A stretch of DNA of 10,224 bases from Candidatus Eiseniibacteriota bacterium (GTDB lineage Bacteria > Eisenbacteria > RBG-16-71-46 > JABDJR01 > JAWXBZ01). Location: NCBI GenBank assembly GCA_034440375.1, contig JAWXBZ010000228.1, positions 1 through 10,224 of the forward strand, read 5' to 3'. Each line of letters begins with the position of its first letter. The first letter of the stretch is position 1. Of the stretch, positions 1-10,224 are shown one piece after another. Both the position numbers and the translations under genes were made by a program. A model generated the notes under the pieces. The model was not told the origin of the DNA. It did no database searches and saw only the letters and a program-made list of their open reading frames with translations.

Positions 1-27
1 CAATCGCTTGACGGGTCGAATGGACAT
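1..27 (-). CDS. N-terminus of a probable pirin-family protein (partial, runs off left edge)
   Basis: Minus strand reads GGAGG-TGTCC-ATG TCC ATT CGA CCC GTC AAG CGA TTG (MSIRPVKRL). Good RBS, and I recall MSIRPVKR as a typical pirin N-terminus. Only 9 codons are visible. Confidence 0.55.
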
Positions 28-70
28 GGACACCTCCGGTTTGGATTCGTGATGACAACCGGGGCCAACA

Positions 71-1339
71 TTACACCCGTGGAGGAGGGGAGCTCCCCCT
101 TCCCAGGATCAGCCGAACCCCTTTTTGATAAGTCAAATACTCCCATCCCCACTCCAGAAACACGGCCACGCGGTTTCGGAAGCCTGCCAGGTACATGATG
201 TGGATGAAGAGCCACAGGAGCCAGGCAAACCACCCGCTGAAGCGGATGAAGCCAAGATCGGCCACCGCGCTGTGCCGGCCGATGGTGGCCATGTCTCCCT
301 TGTTCCAGTAGCGGAAGGGCCGACGTTCGCGGCCGGCCAGCGTCCGTCGGATGTTGTCCGCCGCCCGGGCGCCCCCCTGCATGGCCCCCTGACAAACGCC
401 CGGCACCGGCCGCCCGTTCCCCTGACGCGTGGCGGCGATGTCGCCGATCACGAAAATATCCGGCCGCCCGGGCAGCGACAGGTCTGGCTCCACGTCGATC
501 TGCCCGTTCGGCCGCGTGGGCACGCCCAGCATTTTCGACAGGGGGGAGGCGGCGTTGCCCGCCGCCCAGAACACCGTCCTCGTCGCAATCGTTTCCTCGC
601 CCAGCCGCGCCGACTCCGGGGTGATGTCGCTCACCAGCGTATTCAACCGGATCTCGACACCCATTTGTTCCAGGTCACGCCGCGCCGCCTCCGCCAGATC
701 CTCGGGAAAATTGGCGAGCAGGCGCGCTCCACCTTCCACGAGGAGGATCCGCGTGGCTGCGGTGTCGATCCGGCGAAAGTCCGGGCGCAGCGCCTTCCGG
801 GCCATCGTTATCATGATTCCCGCCAGTTCGACACCGGTCGGCCCGCCGCCGACAATGACGATGGTCTGCCAGGCCCGTCGCGCCGCCTCGTCCAGGGTCA
901 GTTCCGCCTGCTCGAATGCCATCAGGAAGCGCGAGCGCATCTCGAGCGCATCCTCCAGCGTCTTCAGCCCCGGCGCGCGCGGCTCCCATTCGCCATGCCC
1001 GAAGTAGGCGTGGCGCGATCCCGCCGCCAGGACCAGGAAATCCCATGGTTCACGGCGGATCCCGCCGTCAATCTCAACCGTATGCCCCACGGTGTCGATG
1101 CCCGTCACGTCGCCAAGCAGGACGCTCGTGTTCTTCTGCCGGCGCAGATACCAGCGGATCGGCACGGCAATGTCGCTCGGGGCCAGCGTGCCCGAGGCCA
1201 CCTGGTACAGAAGAGGCTGAAAGACGAAGTGATTGCTGCGATCGATGACCATGATGTCGACATCGGCCCCGGCCAACCCCTGCGCGACAGCGATTCCGCC
1301 GAAACCCCCGCCAATGATGACGACGCGCGGGCGGCTCAT
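71..1339 (-). CDS. ndh: NAD(P)/FAD-dependent oxidoreductase, type II NADH dehydrogenase (NDH-2) family
   Basis: Two Rossmann motifs (VVIIGGGFGG, IVIVGGGPTGVE), FQPLLYQVA, VIGD and the NDH-2 C-terminal KGDMATIGR..WLFIHIMYL. Start set at MSRPRVV (ATG 1339), which overlaps the upstream regulator's stop as ATGA (1336-1339). Confidence 0.9.
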   Translation of the reverse strand: MSRPRVVIIGGGFGGIAVAQGLAGADVDIMVIDRSNHFVFQPLLYQVASGTLAPSDIAVPIRWYLRRQKNTSVLLGDVTGIDTVGHTVEIDGGIRREPWDFLVLAAGSRHAYFGHGEWEPRAPGLKTLEDALEMRSRFLMAFEQAELTLDEAARRAWQTIVIVGGGPTGVELAGIMITMARKALRPDFRRIDTAATRILLVEGGARLLANFPEDLAEAARRDLEQMGVEIRLNTLVSDITPESARLGEETIATRTVFWAAGNAASPLSKMLGVPTRPNGQIDVEPDLSLPGRPDIFVIGDIAATRQGNGRPVPGVCQGAMQGGARAADNIRRTLAGRERRPFRYWNKGDMATIGRHSAVADLGFIRFSGWFAWLLWLFIHIMYLAGFRNRVAVFLEWGWEYLTYQKGVRLILGRGSSPPPRV

Positions 1340-1720
1340 TCGGTCATCCGTCGTCGAATTCGCCGCCCGCACTCCATCGGGTCGAGGCACCGGCATGTCA
1401 GTGCCTCGGCGAGCAGTTTTCTCATGGTCTGCGCTCGTTCAATGGATTGATCGATCTCGACCATCTTGGCAGCGGCCAATTTTTTCAATCGCGGTGAGAG
1501 CGACGACTTTACCGGGCGGGCGGTCAGCGTGCGGATTTCGGCAATTGTGAAGCCGCTTTCCCGCGCGAACTGGACGAATGCGATCTGGTTCAGGCAATCC
1601 TCGTCGTAGACACGCCGACCGCCGGCTCGAGGCGGTTTCGGGAGCAGCCCGGCACTTTCGTAGCAGGCGAATAGTCGATGCCGGCAAGCCGCTGCGGCCG
1701 GCGATGTCACCAATCGTCAT
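1336..1720 (-). pseudogene. MerR-family (SoxR-like) transcriptional regulator with a +1 frameshift
   Basis: ATG 1720 gives MTIGDIAGRSGLPASTIR; a second frame continues CYESAGLLPKPPRAGGRRVY...ARESGFTIAEIR...CRCLDPMECG. The junction reads ATT CGC C TGC TAC GAA, one extra base at about 1666-1667. Confidence 0.85.
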
Positions 1721-1730
1721 GATTTGCTCC

Positions 1731-1754
1731 TTGACTTAAAGTGAACTTTAAGTC
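1731..1754 (+). promoter_or_regulatory. SoxR/MerR-type operator overlapping a -35 hexamer
   Basis: Perfect inverted repeat GACTTAAAGT-GA-ACTTTAAGTC (1733-1754) overlapping TTGACT (1731-1736), 12 bp upstream of the regulator start. It resembles the SoxR box CCTCAAGTTAACTTGAGG. The -10 at 19-bp spacing (TGGACC) is poor. Confidence 0.75.
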
Positions 1755-1802
1755 CTGGACCTGGAAAACACCAACGATGATTCCGAAGTCCACCAACGGG
1801 GA

Positions 1803-1852
1803 CGCCCGTGGGTCAAGGAGATGATCCTGGCCGACCTGGAAACCAGATAGGT
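1803..1852 (+). pseudogene. Possible eroded VOC/glyoxalase-family C-terminal fragment
   Basis: One frame reads RPWVKEMILAD and an adjacent frame GNQIG, together resembling the VOC motif PWGxxExxxxDPDGNxI. Very short and frame-disrupted. Confidence 0.3.
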
Positions 1853-1996
1853 CGATCGCCCGGTACGACCCGCCCGGGAGGGCCGCTGGAATACCGGCCC
1901 CTTGAACTGTATTCTCCCCCCGGATTTCATCGAACGATTTCGCGCCGCCGGCGCAGCCACCCAACCACACCGGCCAGGGGCCACCAGGGGGAGATC

Positions 1997-2194
1997 ATGA
2001 GCGAAGATGATGTGATGGTCGTCGTATCCAAGCTGAAGAACTACATCCGCGCCAAGTCTGAAATGAACACGGCTGCCAACGTGGCACCGAAGATTTCCGA
2101 GCTGGTCCGCTCCCTCTGCGACCAGGCCATCGAGCGCGCCAAGAGCGACGGCCGCAAGACCGTCATGGACCGCGATTTCGAGGCGCGCGGGTAG
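1997..2194 (+). CDS. Bacterial histone-fold protein (Bd0055/HBb-like single histone), 65 aa
   Basis: RBS GGGGAG upstream of ATG 1997. MSEDDVMVVVSKLKNYIRAKSEMNTAANVAPKISELVRSLCDQAIERAKSDGRKTVMDRDFEARG contains VVxSKxK..I..K..MNT, LC..A.E.AK and the histone L2/alpha3 signature DGRKTVMxRD. The longer 1808 start in the ORF track is probably spurious. Confidence 0.9.
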   Translation: MSEDDVMVVVSKLKNYIRAKSEMNTAANVAPKISELVRSLCDQAIERAKSDGRKTVMDRDFEARG

Positions 2195-2216
2195 GGTAGT
2201 CTCCGAGGAGACAACC
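2191..2216 (+). repeat. GTAG-type REP-like hairpin
   Basis: GTAG (overlapping the histone stop) followed by GGTAGTCTCC-GA-GGAGACAACC, a palindrome with a single A-A mismatch. Confidence 0.35.
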
Positions 2217-2255
2217 GCCGGGGCACGTCCCTGGCGAGATGCCGTTGCCAACCGA

Positions 2256-2283
2256 CCGGGCGGGGATTGGATACCCCGCCCGG
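2256..2283. terminator. GC-rich hairpin between convergent genes (terminator or REP-like)
   Basis: CCGGGCGGGG-ATTGGATA-CCCCGCCCGG, perfect 10-bp stem; no clear U-tract on either side. Confidence 0.4.
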
Positions 2284-2306
2284 CACGGTCGGCAAACTTT
2301 GGTGCC

Positions 2307-2590
2307 TTACCCCTTGGTCCCCGCGACATCCAGGTGAACTCGAGGCGCCGGTTCGCGTCGATGGCCAGGTATCGCCCGTAGTGGGGGTAGGTGTGCTCCA
2401 GGTACACCATGTCGAGGTAGAAGAGGCCGTCGACCTGCGGTTGCAGTATGGCCCGGCCACCATTGGCCACCCACGCGGCGGCTTCCTTCGGGTCGGTCCA
2501 CGCCTTGAAGACACGTTTCGGGCTTGCGTGCAGGAAGCGGGGCACGTCGCAGGCAAAGGGGCCACGGGCGTCTGGATTCAGAGTTGTTAT
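2307..2590 (-). pseudogene. SRPBCC/AHSA1 (START-like) domain protein, start codon lost and C-terminally truncated
   Basis: Reads RFLHASPKRVFKAWTDP..AAW...HYGRYLAIDANRRLEFTWMS, typical of SRPBCC. Strong RBS AAGGAGG is followed by ATA (2590-2588) rather than ATG. Family-like sequence stops after WMS(x)GTKG at about 2307; the final strands and helix are absent. Confidence 0.75.
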
Positions 2591-2922
2591 GAGTTGTCCT
2601 CCTTGGATGCTTTGAGATGGTCCTCGAGGGCGTCGAGGCGATCGGACCAGAACCGATGAAACTTGCCGGACCATGCGTGAAGCTGCCTCAACGGTTCAGG
2701 CTTGAGACTCAGCACGTGCTCGCGCCCTGAACGGGTGCGTGATATCAAACCAGCTCCTTCCAGCACTTTGAGGTGCTTCGACACCCCGTTCAGCGACATG
2801 TCAAAGGGCGCCGCCAGATCGGTGACGCAGGCCGGCCCACGGGTCAGCCGTTCCACGATCCGTCGGCGCGCCGGATGCGCCAGTGCCGCCAGGGCTCGGT
2901 CGAAGCGTGCGGTCGTTGCCAT
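2587..2922 (-). CDS. ArsR/SmtB-family transcriptional regulator
   Basis: ALAHPARRRIVERL..GPACVTDLAAPFDMSLNGVSKHLKVLEGAGLISR..GRE, with C-terminal FWSDRLDALEDHL typical of SRPBCC-linked ArsR proteins. Confidence 0.92.
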   Translation of the reverse strand: MATTARFDRALAALAHPARRRIVERLTRGPACVTDLAAPFDMSLNGVSKHLKVLEGAGLISRTRSGREHVLSLKPEPLRQLHAWSGKFHRFWSDRLDALEDHLKASKEDNS

Positions 2923-2928
2923 GAATAC

Positions 2929-2948
2929 ATTCAACCATATGGTTGAAT
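2929..2948. promoter_or_regulatory. ArsR autoregulatory operator
   Basis: Perfect 20-bp palindrome ATTCAACCATATGGTTGAAT, 6 bp upstream of the arsR start; a minus-strand TATATT -10 overlaps its outer edge. Confidence 0.8.
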
Positions 2949-3009
2949 ATAAGCGCAAGCGAAATCGGATACCCTTCGCCCCATGCCACCCTGGCCGGAA
3001 GCGATCCCC

Positions 3010-3537
3010 ATGCTGAAATTCGCCGCCATCGACTTCGAAACCGCCGACAACGGCCGGGACAGCGCCTGCGCCCTGGCCATCGTGCGGGTTCAGGGGCAAC
3101 AGGTCATCCAGACCAGCACCCGGCTGATCCGGCCACCGCGCCGGGACATCTTCTACTCGTATATCCACGGGATTACCTGGGCCGACGTGGCCGATCAGCC
3201 GACCTTTCGCGAGCAGTGGCCGGCCATCCAGGAGGAACTGGCCGACCTCGATTTCCTGGTGGCCCACAACGCTCCTTTCGATCGGTCGGTTCTTTACGGC
3301 TGCTGCGAAAAGGCCGGTTACGAGCCGCCGCCGCACCCTTTTCACTGCACGGTCCGGGTGGCCCGCCAGACCTGGAAACTGTCATCCAACAGCCTGCCGA
3401 TTGTAAGTGCCCACCTCGGCATCCCGCTGAAACATCACGACCCGACCTCGGATGCCATGGCCTGCGCCCGCATCCTGCTGGCGGCGCTGGAGCGGGGAGA
3501 GGCGCTGCCGCCGTTTCTCAGGGCGCCGCGGCGGTAG
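3010..3537 (+). CDS. DEDDh 3'-5' exonuclease (DnaQ/epsilon-like, stand-alone)
   Basis: ExoI AIDFET, IHGIT, ExoII VAHNAPFD and ExoIII HDPTSDA (HxxxxD) all intact. Confidence 0.9.
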   Translation: MLKFAAIDFETADNGRDSACALAIVRVQGQQVIQTSTRLIRPPRRDIFYSYIHGITWADVADQPTFREQWPAIQEELADLDFLVAHNAPFDRSVLYGCCEKAGYEPPPHPFHCTVRVARQTWKLSSNSLPIVSAHLGIPLKHHDPTSDAMACARILLAALERGEALPPFLRAPRR

Positions 3538-4005
3538 GTGCGGGCGGAGCGGTCAATTGATACCTCTACGTTGAGCAGCGCCACGCTTCCGGCCGGCACC
3601 GTCGTGCCCATCACCGTGTCTTTTCATGCGCTTGGCACGCTGCGCCCGGGATTCATTTGCTACGGGCTTCGCGACGGATCCGTTCGTGGTGCCGGAACCA
3701 AGCCGCGTCGGAGGCGGGATCGGACCCAACAATGGCGCTCAGGTTTATCATCCGCATTACTCGGCCAGCGGCGCGGACATCCCCCTGGATCTCCTGGCGA
3801 CGATGACCATGAATGTCACGATCGGCACGCCGTTCGTAACTTCGCGAACAGGCGGCGAACAGGCCAATACATGGTGGCCATAAGCCTTCAAATAGGGAAT
3901 CGAGCCCTTCCACCATCCGCGGAGGGGCACCCCACCCATCTCAGGTTTCGGATGTCTCATGGACAACTCAAGAACTTTCAGCCATGACCAAAGTCTGTGG
4001 TGCAC

Positions 4006-4440
4006 TCAATTCCGCGGGGCCGGGCGGCTTTCAGGGTCTTTCTTCGAAGGCAAGGCATCCGTCTGTCCGCGCGACTCGACTTCGGCGATCGCCAACCGCT
4101 CTTCCTTGATCTCCAGGCGCAACCGGCCAAAGAGATTCATGTAAATGTTGGCCATCCAGACCAGTGAAAATCCTGCGATCAGATAGCCTCGCCAATCATC
4201 GAACAGCAGTTTGTAATCGGTGATGAACAGGAAGAAGACGGTGACGTAGTGACTGAAGCAATACTCGCACGTGAACAAGTAGAAGAACTTGCGCGCGAAC
4301 AGCCGCCGGCACGATTTATTCTTCGCAATACACCACTCGCGAGGCTCTCGAAAGATCTCCTCGTGCGTCACGGTCCACGCAATGGCAGCAATCGGCAACG
4401 GCAGCACAAATAACAAAACGAGCTGGCGATCCAACGTCAT
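4006..4440 (-). CDS. Small membrane protein with CxxC (FTCEYCFSHY), possibly DUF1360-like
   Basis: GGAG RBS 7 nt before ATG 4440; three hydrophobic segments; the region is visibly more AT-rich than its flanks. Confidence 0.7.
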   Translation of the reverse strand: MTLDRQLVLLFVLPLPIAAIAWTVTHEEIFREPREWCIAKNKSCRRLFARKFFYLFTCEYCFSHYVTVFFLFITDYKLLFDDWRGYLIAGFSLVWMANIYMNLFGRLRLEIKEERLAIAEVESRGQTDALPSKKDPESRPAPRN

Positions 4441-4478
4441 ATTTCGACTCCGTTGCTCCAATAAGACAACACACTGTC

Positions 4479-4493
4479 GCACAAGATGCGCCA
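4479..4493 (-). promoter_or_regulatory. Candidate sigma-54 (-24/-12) promoter
   Basis: Minus strand TGGCGCATCTTGTGC has the GG-N10-GC spacing of TGGCACGNNNNTTGC, 38 bp upstream of ATG 4440. Confidence 0.4.
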
Positions 4494-4503
4494 CTCCCCC
4501 ATT

Positions 4504-5205
4504 TCATGCCTCCCCCGGAAAAGCCGGAACAAACACCGTACAGTGACCCGGTACCTCCTCCGGCCGAACCCCAAGTTCGCTCCAGACCGAAGTCAGGAAG
4601 GCGCCCCACTGCTCTCGCGAGGTGGGGCGGTAAGGGTCGTTTACAAAGTAGACATCCGCGAGCCAGGCCGGGACGCGCATCACCTCACGGAAGAAGTGGA
4701 GATGGGCCAGTCGGTTCGCCGATTGATAGAGGCGTCCCTCCCAATCCGGCGTGCCGGAGGCCCCGAGGCGATCGGCCGTGACCTTCAAGGCCAGGCGAAT
4801 CTTCTCCACAGATGCCGGCCCGGCTCCACACCCCGTGCCAAAGACTTCATCCAGGTGGCTCTTGGCTTCGACCATGATGACACCGTGATAGTCCGGGTCA
4901 TCCGGGCTTGAAATCACCGCCAACCCATCCCAGCAAGGGCCCAGTCGGGGCCAGAACCCGCCTACCAGCTCTCGCGTCAGATGACCGACGCCGAGTGCGT
5001 CCAGAAAGCGCTCGTCGCAGAACTCAGCATAGTCATCCGATTCCAGCGGCGACACCCACCAGATTCGGCCGCCCCCCGCCGGCCCATCCACCAGCGAAGC
5101 CAGGATGGCCTCATTGAGCCGATCCGGCCCCTCGTTCACGTACCGTTGAATCTGCAGCCGACTCCCTGCTCGAGCCAGACCCTTCGGGCACTCCCTTTTC
5201 GCCAT
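4504..5205 (-). CDS. Hypothetical protein with PD-(D/E)xK nuclease-like motifs
   Basis: 233 aa; FWPRLGPCWDGLA ... GVIMVEAKSH ... YQSANRLAHL provides the D ... ExK ... YQ arrangement of restriction-endonuclease-like folds. Confidence 0.7.
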   Translation of the reverse strand: MAKRECPKGLARAGSRLQIQRYVNEGPDRLNEAILASLVDGPAGGGRIWWVSPLESDDYAEFCDERFLDALGVGHLTRELVGGFWPRLGPCWDGLAVISSPDDPDYHGVIMVEAKSHLDEVFGTGCGAGPASVEKIRLALKVTADRLGASGTPDWEGRLYQSANRLAHLHFFREVMRVPAWLADVYFVNDPYRPTSREQWGAFLTSVWSELGVRPEEVPGHCTVFVPAFPGEA

Positions 5206-5211
5206 GACCGG

Positions 5212-5217
5212 ATTCTA
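5212..5217 (-). promoter_or_regulatory. -10 element placed for leaderless transcription
   Basis: TAGAAT-CCGGTC-ATG on the minus strand (6 nt between -10 and ATG 5205); no Shine-Dalgarno. Confidence 0.5.
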
Positions 5218-5353
5218 GCGCACGGGGATGTCGGCCTCGGGATCAGAATTAGCTGCAACCACGTCGACCTTCTCTTCGTACAAGCAATCAGCCGTCGAGG
5301 GTCACCCTCGCTTGATGAGTCTCACACACCCGCGCGTCGAGCGCACTGGAGCG

Positions 5354-6514
5354 ATGATGTCTGGTGGCGCCGAGCTGCACACCTGCCTGAAGAAGATCGA
5401 CCGCGCCGAGTGGGACGCCATCGTCCCGAACCAACGGTTGTTCCAAAGCTATGCGTTCCACCAGGCGCTCCACGAAGCCACCATCAACGACTGCGAGTAC
5501 CGGTACTTCGTGGTCCGCGGCGCCGCCGGCGAGATGCGGGCGCACGCCTCGTTCTATTCCATCTCGACCCCCCTCGACCTGTTTCTCCCCGGGCAGAGCG
5601 GGCTGGCGCGCCTGCTCAGTGGCCTCCGCTCGGTGCATTCCTCATTTCTCGACTTTCGCCTGGTCGAGTGCGGCAGCCCCACTGCGATTGGATACCCTGT
5701 CGCCTTCCGGCCCGATATTCCGAGCTCCGAGCGAACGACCATCTTCGCCGCGCTGACGGAGCAAATGGAGGCGTTCGCCAGGAAAAAACGCGCCGACCTG
5801 CTGGTGCTACGCGATTTCCGCGACGGCGAGCTGGAGGACATAGGTGGCCTGGTCGAGGCGGGTTTTCGGGGCGTTCCCAACCTGGAGGACTCGCGCCTCA
5901 ACCTGAGGTGGAAAAGCTTCGATGCCTACCTCGCATCGCTCAAGTCGCACTATCGACGGCAGGTTCGCCTCAACATGGCCAAGGCGCAACGCGCCGGCCT
6001 TCGTGCCGAACGCGTGTTTGACTTCTCCCCACACGCGGAAGAGTTCGCCCGCCTTTGGAGGCTGACCCACCAGCGCTCGAAGGAGTACCAGCGCGAGCGG
6101 CTGGGCGCTGACTACTTCCGGGCCATCGCCCGCAACCTGGGCGAAAAAGCCTTCGCCACGCTCTTTTGGCTGGGCAACACCCTGGTCGGCTTCAGCCTCT
6201 ACCTCGCCAACGATGACGTACTGGTGCCCAGCTACATCGGCATCGACTACGAAAAAAATGCCGAGGCGGCACTGGTCTTCAACGCCTACTACGACTGGAT
6301 TCGCACCGGCATCGAGCTCGGTTTCGCATCAGTCGAACTGGGCATCACGTCCTACGAGCCCAAGCGGAGGCTTGGCGCCGAACTGGAGCGGCTACATGTC
6401 CTCATTCGCCACCGGACGTCAGGCCTCACCCCGATGGTGGCGGCTCTCTACCGGCAGATGACGCCACGGCAGAGCGTGCTGGGCCGTCACGTCTTTGCGG
6501 CGTCGGGGGGCTGA
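5354..6514 (+). CDS. GNAT/FemAB-like two-domain acyl/aminoacyl transferase
   Basis: GGAG RBS before ATG ATG (5354/5357). Motifs LVECGSP, WKSFDAYLASLKSHYRRQVR, YIGIDYE and ELGITSYEPKRRLGA are characteristic of FemAB-like/GNAT proteins. Start could be 5228 or 5315. Confidence 0.8.
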   Translation: MMSGGAELHTCLKKIDRAEWDAIVPNQRLFQSYAFHQALHEATINDCEYRYFVVRGAAGEMRAHASFYSISTPLDLFLPGQSGLARLLSGLRSVHSSFLDFRLVECGSPTAIGYPVAFRPDIPSSERTTIFAALTEQMEAFARKKRADLLVLRDFRDGELEDIGGLVEAGFRGVPNLEDSRLNLRWKSFDAYLASLKSHYRRQVRLNMAKAQRAGLRAERVFDFSPHAEEFARLWRLTHQRSKEYQRERLGADYFRAIARNLGEKAFATLFWLGNTLVGFSLYLANDDVLVPSYIGIDYEKNAEAALVFNAYYDWIRTGIELGFASVELGITSYEPKRRLGAELERLHVLIRHRTSGLTPMVAALYRQMTPRQSVLGRHVFAASGG

Positions 6515-6622
6515 CCCTCAACCGTGGCTCGCTCTCGCATGAAAAACATGACCGGCATGAATCGGAACCGGTCGCCGCGCGCCCGACCGTAACCGGCGGG
6601 CACCGGACCAGCGTCCCGCGGG

Positions 6623-7777
6623 CTATGGTGGCGGCGCCGGCAGGCTGGCGGGGTCGGCCGGGTAGGTGCCGAGGACGCGCAGCTCGACGGTCAGCGGGCG
6701 GACCTCGGCGAGCGCAGCCACGAACGCCTGCGAGGCACCGTGGCCGAGCGCGTCGAGGTAGAAGCGGTAACGCCAGGGAGTCGACGGAATCGGGCGCGAC
6801 TCGAGCTTGGTCAGCGACAGCCCGCGGGCCGCGAAGCGCATCAGGACCTCGCCGAGCGCGCCAGGGTGGTCCGCGAGAGTGAGCAGGAGCGAGGTCTTGG
6901 CGATCACGTCGGCGGCGACCGGCGCCGGGCGCAGCGCCACCTCGACGAAGCGGGTCGCGTTGCCGGCCTCGGTCTGGATGCCGCGTGCCACGATCGCAAG
7001 GCCGTAGGTGGTGGCCGCCGACGCGCTGGCAATGGCGCCGAACGTTGCGTCGCGCAGGTCGCGCACCTTGCGCGCCGAGCCGGCGGTGTCGAGCTCGGCC
7101 TGGGCGTGCAAGTGCGGGTTTGCGATCCAGAATGCCTGGCACTGCGCCAGCGCTTGCGGGTGCGACAGCACGACCCGCAGATCTTCGAGCCGCGCGCCAG
7201 GCAGGGCGAGCAGGCAGTGCTCGATCGCGCTCACGACCTCGCCGGTGATGGTGAGGTGCCCCTCGGCGAGAAGATCGTATGTCTCGTTGATGCTGCCGGC
7301 GGTGGTGTTCTCGATCGGCAAGAGGGCGAGGTCGGCGGCGCCGGAGACCACCGCTTCGGCCGCGGCCCGGAACGTGTCGGAGCCCCTCAGGAGCACGCCG
7401 CCGGGGCGACCGCTGTAGGTGCGTTGCGCCGCCAGGTGGCTGTAGCTGCCTTCGACGCCCTGGTAGGTAACCCGAAGCGGCGCATCTTCCCGGCGGCGGA
7501 CGCTCGCCTCCTGATGGGCGACCGACATGTCCATCACGACGCGGTACAGGCGCTCAACCTCGTGCGGGTCCAGGCCCACCGCGGTTGCCTCGGCGCGCAG
7601 GCGCATCATGAGGAGGTCTTCGCGCGTCCGATCGCGGAACGGGCTTGCCGCCTCCAGCTTGGCGCCGGCAACGGCTTCGACGGTGCGATTGCGCTCCGCG
7701 AGGAGCGCGATGATCTGCCGGTCGATGACCTCGATCCGATCGCGTAGCGCGCCGAGCCGAGCGGAAGGATCACTCAT
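6623..7777 (-). CDS. pheA: Bifunctional chorismate mutase / prephenate dehydratase (P-protein)
   Basis: AroQ domain LRDRIEVIDRQIIALLAER..K..RE; PDT motifs YQGVEGSYSHLAA, LPIENTTAGSI, SHPQALAQC, NATRF; ACT domain PGAL..LTKLESRP..YRFYLD. Confidence 0.95.
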   Translation of the reverse strand: MSDPSARLGALRDRIEVIDRQIIALLAERNRTVEAVAGAKLEAASPFRDRTREDLLMMRLRAEATAVGLDPHEVERLYRVVMDMSVAHQEASVRRREDAPLRVTYQGVEGSYSHLAAQRTYSGRPGGVLLRGSDTFRAAAEAVVSGAADLALLPIENTTAGSINETYDLLAEGHLTITGEVVSAIEHCLLALPGARLEDLRVVLSHPQALAQCQAFWIANPHLHAQAELDTAGSARKVRDLRDATFGAIASASAATTYGLAIVARGIQTEAGNATRFVEVALRPAPVAADVIAKTSLLLTLADHPGALGEVLMRFAARGLSLTKLESRPIPSTPWRYRFYLDALGHGASQAFVAALAEVRPLTVELRVLGTYPADPASLPAPPP

Positions 7778-8031: not shown

Positions 8032-8076
8032 TGGTAGCGGGGCTTGGATTTGAACCAACGACCTTTGGGTTATGAG
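8032..8076 (-). tRNA. 3' half of tRNA-Met(CAT), initiator-like; probable att-site duplicate
   Basis: Minus strand CTCATAA-CCCAA-AGGTC-GTTGG-TTCAAAT-CCAAG-CCCCGCT-A-CCA covers anticodon loop to CCA. The upstream bases (CGACC) cannot form the anticodon stem, so there is no intact 5' half. Confidence 0.85.
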
Positions 8077-8354: not shown

Positions 8355-8712
8355 TCATTGCGCGATCGTGTAGCTGCCGGTGTAGCCCTCGCTCTTCAAT
8401 CGATCGAAGATCCGCTTGGCCGTGTGGCGCTGCTTCTTCGGCGCCAGGCGGTCCTGGGCCAGAATCTGGCGGATACGGTCGACGTACGGCCCCAACTTCG
8501 GCTTCCCGCGCAGCCGCTTCAACCGATACCCCGGCGGCGTATCTCGGTCCACTGTTCCATGTTCGCGTACAACTCCTGGCCTCCGGGAGCTCAAGGGCAG
8601 ATCTGTCAGGGCGAAATCCCTGACCAGTCTGCCCCGCCTCCTGGCGGCGGCAGGGGATGCCGCACTTTTCGACCGGCGCGGCTGGTGCCGCGGTTTTGGA
8701 CCGGCGTTTACA
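8355..8712 (-). mobile_element. istA: IS21-family remnant: left end plus deleted/truncated istA
   Basis: End begins TGTAAA (8712) with two 21-bp direct repeats (8658-8678 and 8686-8706, 18/21 identical). istA start (M)YANMEQWTEIRRR from 8572, then a shifted frame PPGYR..KPKLGPY..I..IL..D..APKKQRHTAKRIFDRL..EGYTGSYT ending at TGA 8355. Confidence 0.85.
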
Positions 8713-9811: not shown

Positions 9812-9960
9812 GTACGCCCGTCATGGGCACTGACCTGGAGATGCAAGTCCTCCGGTGATCTGGTCACGGAGAGCCAAGGGAACCGCAAGGTTTCGACCGC
9901 GAGGTCGAGGCTGAAAGCAGCGGGGAACGGAACCGCGGGCCAACGAACAGGAACCGGATA
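9812..9960 (+). mobile_element. Group II intron, class C (IIC)-like, 5' fragment (part of domain I)
   Basis: GTACGCCCGTCATGGGC resembles the IIC 5' end GTGCGCCCGGCATGGG; also TGCAAGTCC, GNRA hairpin TCGACC-GCGA-GGTCGA (9893-9908), CTGAA..AGC and GGGCCAACGAACAGGAACCGGATA. It starts 5 nt after a terminator stem, the known IIC target. Confidence 0.75.
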
Positions 9961-10068
9961 AGTGCCGGCCGAATATGTCGAGCCGGAGTCCTTCGCTACT
10001 AGCCCCTCCCAGCCGTTCTGCTTGACCTGCTCCCAAGCCTCAAAGTCGTTCGGTGCCAGTCGGCGAGC
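9961..10068 (-). pseudogene. ATP-dependent DNA ligase fragment (motif IV region)
   Basis: ARRLAPNDFEAWEQVKQNGWEGLVAKDSGSTYSAGT matches the EG(L/V)xxK..S.Y..G pattern of LigC/LigD-type ligases; 36 codons with no start or stop. Confidence 0.65.
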
Positions 10069-10086: not shown

Positions 10087-10224
10087 GTGCGCCGTGCCAA
10101 GGCGTCGATTCCCAGTGGGTGCAAGTCCCACCCGGCGACGGGTCGCTCCAGCCGGAAGCAGTCGGAGCGGCGGAGGAGGTAACAAATCCGTCGAAGCCTC
10201 TGATGTAACGGGTCACTTCGGGTG
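10087..10224 (+). mobile_element. Second group II intron, 5' end (continues beyond window)
   Basis: Canonical GTGCG start: GTGCGCCGTGCCAAGGCG..GTGGGTGCAAGTCCCAC..GCCGGAAGC..GGTAAC..GAAGCC. Sequence differs from the upstream IIC-like fragment. Confidence 0.75.

Follow-up and report, generated by a model that had tools for sequence, protein, structure and literature searches.

The window, a stretch of 10,224 nucleotides from a contig of an uncultured Eisenbacteria bacterium, contains an intact gene for a small bacterial histone of the HBb type. The gene lies at 1997-2194 on the forward strand and has 65 codons followed by TAG. It was identified through its translation, phmmer searches, an AlphaFold2 model, Foldseek comparisons and the finding that pN < pS among its relatives. 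The best explanation, to which we assign a probability of roughly 85%, is that the protein is an HBb-type dimeric nucleoid histone.

Bacterial histones have been recognised as real chromatin proteins only in 2023-2024. To our knowledge two of them have been studied at the bench, HBb (Bd0055, from Bdellovibrio bacteriovorus) and HLp (from Leptospira perolatii).

The protein type itself is not new. The gene is a new member of the HBb-type 'bacterial dimer' family of alpha3 histones, a category that was defined by sequence clustering and is already catalogued (PMC11390915). New are only its source, an uncultured phylum that has not been studied, and the fact that curated models overlook it.

The histone ORF runs from ATG at 1997 to TAG at 2192-2194. 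A purine-rich, Shine-Dalgarno-like stretch, AGGGGGAG at 1986-1993 (+), can be read from the sequence 3 nt upstream of this ATG. By eye, GGAGG is found 5-6 nt upstream of the homology-assigned start in six of the seven other loci from the same order, and L030 was likewise seen to have the same site. The sequence-only reading had described a 65-aa ORF with its own ribosome-binding site, and that is what the window holds.

This ORF is also the 3' half of an in-frame 128-aa ORF that opens at GTG 1808. The longer start is not supported. Its extension (1808-1996) carries no Pfam domain, and the 76 aligned relatives are 61-74 aa long with a median of 65, 24 of them also opening with MSE. Matches to relatives begin at query residues 1-5, although the open frames of these relatives span 76 to 250 aa. 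The longer ORF had been called mis-started and the histone described as lacking an N-terminal zinc-finger extension; both statements agree with the blank extension and with the median length. The 65-aa protein consists of a histone domain only, with no ZZ, GTPase or other domain. A public protein collection already contains the exact 65-aa protein as a cluster, so it is solely a naive longest-ORF reading that hides the gene.

The non-coding leader or promoter region (1721-1985, +) takes in the unsupported extension. A scan of 1600-2500 gave no promoter-like and no terminator-like sites, with no sigma-70 consensus match in the leader, and at gathering score the leader has no match in Rfam. In one same-order genus, four loci (L025, L030, L046 and L082) have in common a ATCTGGGA-N-GAT element, located by eye about 90-110 nt upstream of the histone start. 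None was seen in the window, again by eye.

When all PDB chains were searched with phmmer, HBb/Bd0055 (8cmp/8fvx) matched at E 2.9e-12 over 57 ungapped residues, 27 of which are identical. The sequence therefore clusters with HBb. The next solved relatives are HLp at E 4.5e-6 and HTkC (Thermococcus kodakarensis) at E 3.9e-4; HMfB is found at E 0.12. Three motifs had been quoted earlier, and all of them are in the 65-aa protein: V8-V9-x-S11-K12-x-K14, I17..K20..M23-N24-T25, and A48-K49-x-D51-G52-R53-K54-T55-V56-M57-x-R59-D60. Bd0055 had been said to share them without gaps. This is correct, as the pairwise alignment is ungapped and all three recur in 8cmp/8fvx.

Curated models do not reach this protein. 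It scores 18.1 bits with PF00808 (CBFD_NFYB_HMF), where the cut-off is 21.4, and 17.8 bits with the NCBIfam model NF043032 (archaea_histone), where the cut-off is 50. Both weak matches span residues 33-61 only, which is alpha2, L2 and alpha3. In a PF00808 scan of the whole genome the sole match is the histone gene itself, at 17.2 bits and thus also under the cut-off. A comparison with PF00808 had been proposed from the sequence: formally the protein falls short there, but the homology is clear. Since the cut-offs of Pfam and NCBIfam miss the HBb-type family, its genes are deposited as 'hypothetical protein'.

The family is large. A search among proteins of 35-114 aa gave 1209 homologues at E<=1e-3, and with a 76-row profile, out of 1.84 billion, 953 representative clusters reach E<=1e-3, of which 479 reach E<=1e-10. 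The family is under purifying selection. Over a 56-codon core, pN is below pS in 80/80 pairwise comparisons (median pS 0.67, median pN 0.19); a few of the 80 loci with DNA that were compared duplicate one genome, and four rows were excluded for stops, X or a truncated start. Homology and selection signal are both well beyond chance.

Within the family, the protein is near the consensus of a very conserved subgroup, with 60-92% identity across MAGs labelled with many phyla. These labels include Bdellovibrionota, Planctomycetota, Nitrospirota and Eisenbacteria.

AlphaFold2, run on the 76-row alignment, gave a model with a pLDDT of 90.6 and helices at 3-21, 29-50 and 58-61. This means that alpha2 is shortened to 22 residues and alpha3 is cut to four, which makes it the alpha3-truncated histone fold that Schwab et al. 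describe (PMC11390915). The best solved Foldseek matches are HBb chains (TMq 0.74-0.77, TMt 0.78-0.82, 45-46% identity), then come HLp and HTkC, and then eukaryotic and archaeal histones. The short-alpha3 fold that had been predicted from the letters is thus recovered. VIA-align Z-scores are tied, at 6.7-6.8 for HBb, 6.6 for HTkC and 6.5 for HLp, which counts against the dimer reading. Because of this tie the fold alone cannot pick between the dimer and the face-to-face (FtF) subtype; the sequence does.

The key residues were mapped from HBb using the +2 offset in the phmmer alignment. According to PMC11317129, the ten main DNA-contact residues of HBb are S9, K10, K12, N22, K52, T53, R57, K16, T8 and S24. 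Seven of the ten are identical here (S11, K12, K14, N24, K54, T55 and R59), and K16 is replaced by R18. The remaining two, T8 and S24, are V10 and A26 and so are not kept, which counts against the preferred reading. The D49/R51/D58 clamp of HBb is complete, as D51/R53/D60, so the RKTxxxD motif is present together with an RD clamp augmented by a further Asp two residues ahead of the Arg.

Conservation among the relatives follows the same residues. S11, K12, K14, N24, C41, R53, K54, T55, D60 and F61 are invariant in 76/76, and D51 is Asp in 75/76. Position 18 is Arg in 61 relatives and Lys in the other 15. The protein thus has both the S-K motif and the conserved basic residues of alpha1. By our own matching, S11/K12/K14/R18 correspond to positions 11, 13 and 17 of the logo in PMC11390915.

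Cys41 (codon 2117-2119), one of the invariant residues, sits in the middle of alpha2. It is Cys in HBb as well, whereas HLp has Ile and HTkC has Val. The main texts of PMC11317129 and PMC10627809 mention no cysteine or disulfide in this connection.

HBb (PDB 8cmp, 8fvx, 9ezz, 9f0e) is the closest known system. It is in the same length class, with the same helix-loop-helix-loop-short-helix fold and an ungapped identity of 47%. Both proteins have the S-K motif in alpha1, MNT in L1, the alpha2 Cys and the D-G-R-K-T-V-M-x-R-D clamp, and both come from a stand-alone gene that coexists with HU/IHF. There are differences apart from the two lost contacts. The residue after the clamp is Phe here and Ile in HBb, and HBb is the more basic of the two. 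The gene here comes from the MAG of an uncultured Eisenbacteria bacterium and not from a predator. HBb has also diverged from the conserved subgroup to whose consensus this protein is near.

The charge is in fact only weakly basic, with a pI of 7.87 and 12 K+R versus 11 D+E, and this too counts against the main reading.

Archaeal HMfA and HMfB have the histone fold in common with this protein, and also the L2 RKT and RD clamp. They differ in alpha3, which has four residues here versus about ten there, and their alpha2 is longer. The position of the archaeal tetramerisation His (H49 of HMfB, as given in PMC10627809) is S50, and none of the 76 relatives has His there. With neither a full alpha3 nor this His, and with both curated cut-offs missed, the protein lacks the distinguishing features of the archaeal nucleosomal type.

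Most likely, by analogy with HBb, this is a homodimeric nucleoid protein that binds and bends DNA without sequence specificity. What the analysis establishes is the gene itself, its conservation and purifying selection, the fold and the retention of key residues; we infer dimerisation, DNA binding, bending and abundance. By homology, two copies would pair head-to-tail through a handshake of their long alpha2 helices. Through S11-K12, K14 and R18 at the start of alpha1, and through N24-T25, R53-K54-T55 (which the D51/R53/D60 clamp holds in place) and R59 in the paired L1/L2 loops, the dimer would bind the backbone of DNA at its minor grooves, whatever the sequence. Nucleosome-like tetramers would not be formed. 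DNA would be locally bent as by HU/IHF, or else coated.

The histone would have a monocistronic gene to itself and would work, at high abundance, as a nucleoid-associated protein beside the two HU/IHF proteins of the genome. HU/IHF (PF00216) would resemble it in this proposed job, being small dimers that bend DNA non-specifically at minor grooves (PMC11317129), but have an unrelated fold. The mode of action of HBb itself is modelled as bending in one of two papers and as filaments in the other, and this disagreement counts against the main reading.

There are also natural tandem doublets of the HBb-type domain in metagenomes (P0121, P0122, P0124, P0132, P0138 and P0144). Each half has its own S-K and RKT motifs, and the linker is about 5-15 residues long. 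The model of P0122 (pLDDT 91, pTM 0.83) is a single-chain handshake pair, and matches single-chain H2A-H2B constructs and the Methanopyrus (M. kandleri) doublet 1f1e (TMq 0.68). Its halves each superpose on HBb with a TMt of 0.89-0.95. Such doublets lend indirect, family-level support to a dimer, by way of one predicted doublet structure. No description of them was found in the available parts of PMC11390915.

The protein could instead function like the face-to-face alpha3 histones HLp and HTkC (PDB 9qt0, 9f2c). Two dimers would then join through the end of alpha2, L2 and alpha3, and the resulting tetramer would wrap about 60 bp, as HLp does. The truncated alpha3 fold is similar (TMq 0.71-0.73, Z 6.5-6.6), the RKT/RD clamp is common to all, and structural scores tie with those for HBb. 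Of the six residues in the HLp tetramer network (preprint 10.1101/2025.05.08.652872), mapped through the phmmer alignment to PDB chains, four are identical: R47, S50, R53 and F61. This also counts against the dimer reading. F61, invariant in the relatives, is Ile in HBb, which is a point in favour of the FtF-like reading.

The rest of the network speaks against such a tetramer. N53 and T61 of HLp are D51 and R59 here, and the T61 equivalent is Arg in 70/76 relatives. The conserved FtF interface is R48/N52/R54 (HLp R49, N53, R55). R48 and N52 of the logo have R47 and D51 as their counterparts here, so that Asp stands in place of the conserved Asn (N52/N53), as it does in 75/76 relatives. R47 and S50 are not conserved in the family, with Arg in 34/76 and Ser in 37/76. 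By sequence, the match to HBb is better than that to HLp by some six orders of magnitude. Schwab et al. report that they obtained no confident multimer above the dimer for this sequence cluster (PMC11390915). The shared network residues are the reason to keep a small probability for the tetramer, and the HBb-type dimer is preferred.

The gene is single-copy in a 3.96-Mb genome that is 93.7% complete, and which also has two PF00216 HU/IHF genes. It is found in 8/10 genomes of the order, including the one analysed here, and, using the family profile, in 14/201 of the phylum's sampled genomes. The contig matches its genome. Its GC content is 0.635, versus 0.638 for the genome, and its tetranucleotide correlation is 0.97, where the 5th percentile among 209 contigs of at least 5 kb is 0.945. 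The PheA protein encoded on it is closest to those of same-order genomes (59% and 56%). Two other metagenome contigs have the same locus. One (L102) is 100% identical over window positions 1-7191, and the other (L103) is 99.97% identical, with differences only inside merR.

The surroundings of the gene are not conserved. When 10 neighbours from the window were compared by tblastn with the histone loci of nine relatives, none was found. Pfam annotation of 30 flanking ORFs gave genus-level patterns only, for example SnoaL with acetyl-CoA hydrolase in one genus and an amidase in another. A conserved partner gene, including control by the divergent MerR, was considered and rejected, as no neighbour recurs in the nine relatives.

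Upstream lies a MerR-family gene (1336-1720, -), which is split over two frames with the break at about 1664-1667. The N-terminal HTH shares its frame with the 1439-1720 ORF, the remainder with the 1336-1713 ORF. L103 has the gene in frame, as do contigs from runs X9 and X11; L102 and run X5 match the window. The frameshift is either a population variant or an assembly error.

Between merR and the histone gene there is an inverted repeat at 1728-1759, with 15-nt arms, a 2-nt spacer, 87% complementarity and a perfect core of 9. It overlaps TTGACT and ends about 10 nt before the Shine-Dalgarno site of merR, and looks like the operator of the merR regulator. No link between this repeat and the histone gene is conserved in the relatives.

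Such a neighbour raises the question of whether a protein with a histone fold could have a job outside chromatin, for example as an adaptor between proteins or as a specific regulator that may itself be controlled by the divergent MerR-type protein. The divergent gene with its repeat and the nearly neutral net charge would be in keeping with this, and both published surveys warn that some prokaryotic histone folds may have roles outside chromatin (PMC11390915 and PMC10627809). We nevertheless hold it to be quite improbable: 0/9 relatives examined have a MerR gene beside the histone, the merR allele in the window is frameshifted where the histone ORF is intact, and no columns are more conserved than those of the DNA contacts of HBb.

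On the downstream side, the stop codon is immediately followed by three GC-rich stem-loops (2199-2292), which separate the histone gene from an oppositely oriented SRPBCC remnant. The RNA fold of 2190-2320 has an energy of -73.9 kcal/mol (z = -4.35), and 0/200 shuffles are as stable. Inverted repeats are at 2252-2265/2279-2292 and 2256-2265/2274-2283. The terminator scan is empty here because no T-run follows. The stem-loops are probably a transcription stop or a stability element.

The SRPBCC/AHSA1 gene (2318-2674, -) is downstream of an ArsR-type HTH gene and convergent with the histone gene. It is truncated: it covers Pfam positions 2-70 of 125, where a same-order homologue of 149 aa (L101) has 2-124. 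It ends near 2318, where the stem-loops begin. Its frame stays open to 1748, antisense across the histone gene, and this produces a spurious 308-aa ORF. Nothing in the remainder of the genome matches the half that is missing. Both flanking genes are thus damaged in this assembly and the locus may be decaying, which counts against the main reading.

Further away, Rfam matches to group II intron D1-D4 score 36.2 bits at 9893-10010 (+) and 69.8 bits at 10113-10224 (+). As the contig ends within the latter, its right edge holds the beginning of a group II intron. A tRNA T-arm-like motif at 8046-8056 (-) is one match where 0.10 is expected by chance; ARAGORN reports no tRNA there. Nearby is a 79-aa ORF (8355-8594, -) that looks IS21- or transposase-like, an identity for which Pfam gave no support. 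This region may be a mobile-element remnant. Two adjacent ORFs, 4006-4494 (-, 162 aa) and 4504-5205 (-, 233 aa), match no Pfam family at E<=0.001, and the first looks membrane-embedded by composition.

The origin of the gene was examined with a 79-row tree that excludes fifteen rows, which either duplicate one genome or have stops, X or a truncated start. Most deep forks of this tree are open. The window protein is placed beside two Bdellovibrionota MAG proteins with an unstarred support of 98/72, and the same-order sequences are scattered in a largely unresolved tree. In an AU test, a single clade for the eight same-order rows was not rejected (p 0.228).

Together, the scars at the locus and the scattered placement of same-order sequences hint at lateral arrival. 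Given the unresolved tree and the AU result, transfer is not demonstrated. A specific version is that the gene came in as a one-gene chromatin cassette, made up of the ORF, the Shine-Dalgarno site and the 3' stem-loops, and entered a locus that was damaged by the cassette or its arrival; we regard this as tentative and rather unlikely.

Hardly credible is that the gene is a recently acquired or decaying passenger, unexpressed in this organism: it does sit between a frameshifted merR and a 3'-truncated SRPBCC gene, without a neighbourhood in common with relatives and with higher identity to the two Bdellovibrionota MAG proteins (81%, 74%) than to those of the order (63-73%), but three assemblies (the window, L102 and L103) have an intact, identical ORF, which keeps its Shine-Dalgarno-like site and every invariant family residue, has 60.1% GC versus 63.8% for the genome, and belongs to a set that is present in 8/10 genomes of the order and for which a single clade was not rejected.

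Overall the sequence-only reading is supported in what it observed and in how it interpreted it, with the formal shortfall in Pfam as a caveat. It had also suggested that no histone might have been studied in this lineage. A full-text literature search found no mention of an Eisenbacteria histone. The supplement of PMC11390915 holds accession codes and categories without taxon names, and in the supplements of PMC10627809, as far as available, Eisenbacteria appears only in the list of surveyed genomes. The intact gene in an unstudied, uncultured candidate phylum may be new to its lineage; the type of protein is not new, as PMC11390915 had already defined and catalogued it.

The HBb type of histone now extends to the candidate phylum Eisenbacteria, where it is kept in most genomes of one order and is rare elsewhere in the phylum. 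If transfer were true, HBb-type histones would be mobile plug-in nucleoid proteins that are exchanged between phyla. This would explain their patchy distribution, and also the 60-90% identity across MAGs of different phyla. By itself the gene opens no new question. Being near the consensus of its subgroup, the protein is a reasonable second representative for finding out if bending or filament formation is the general mode of the family.
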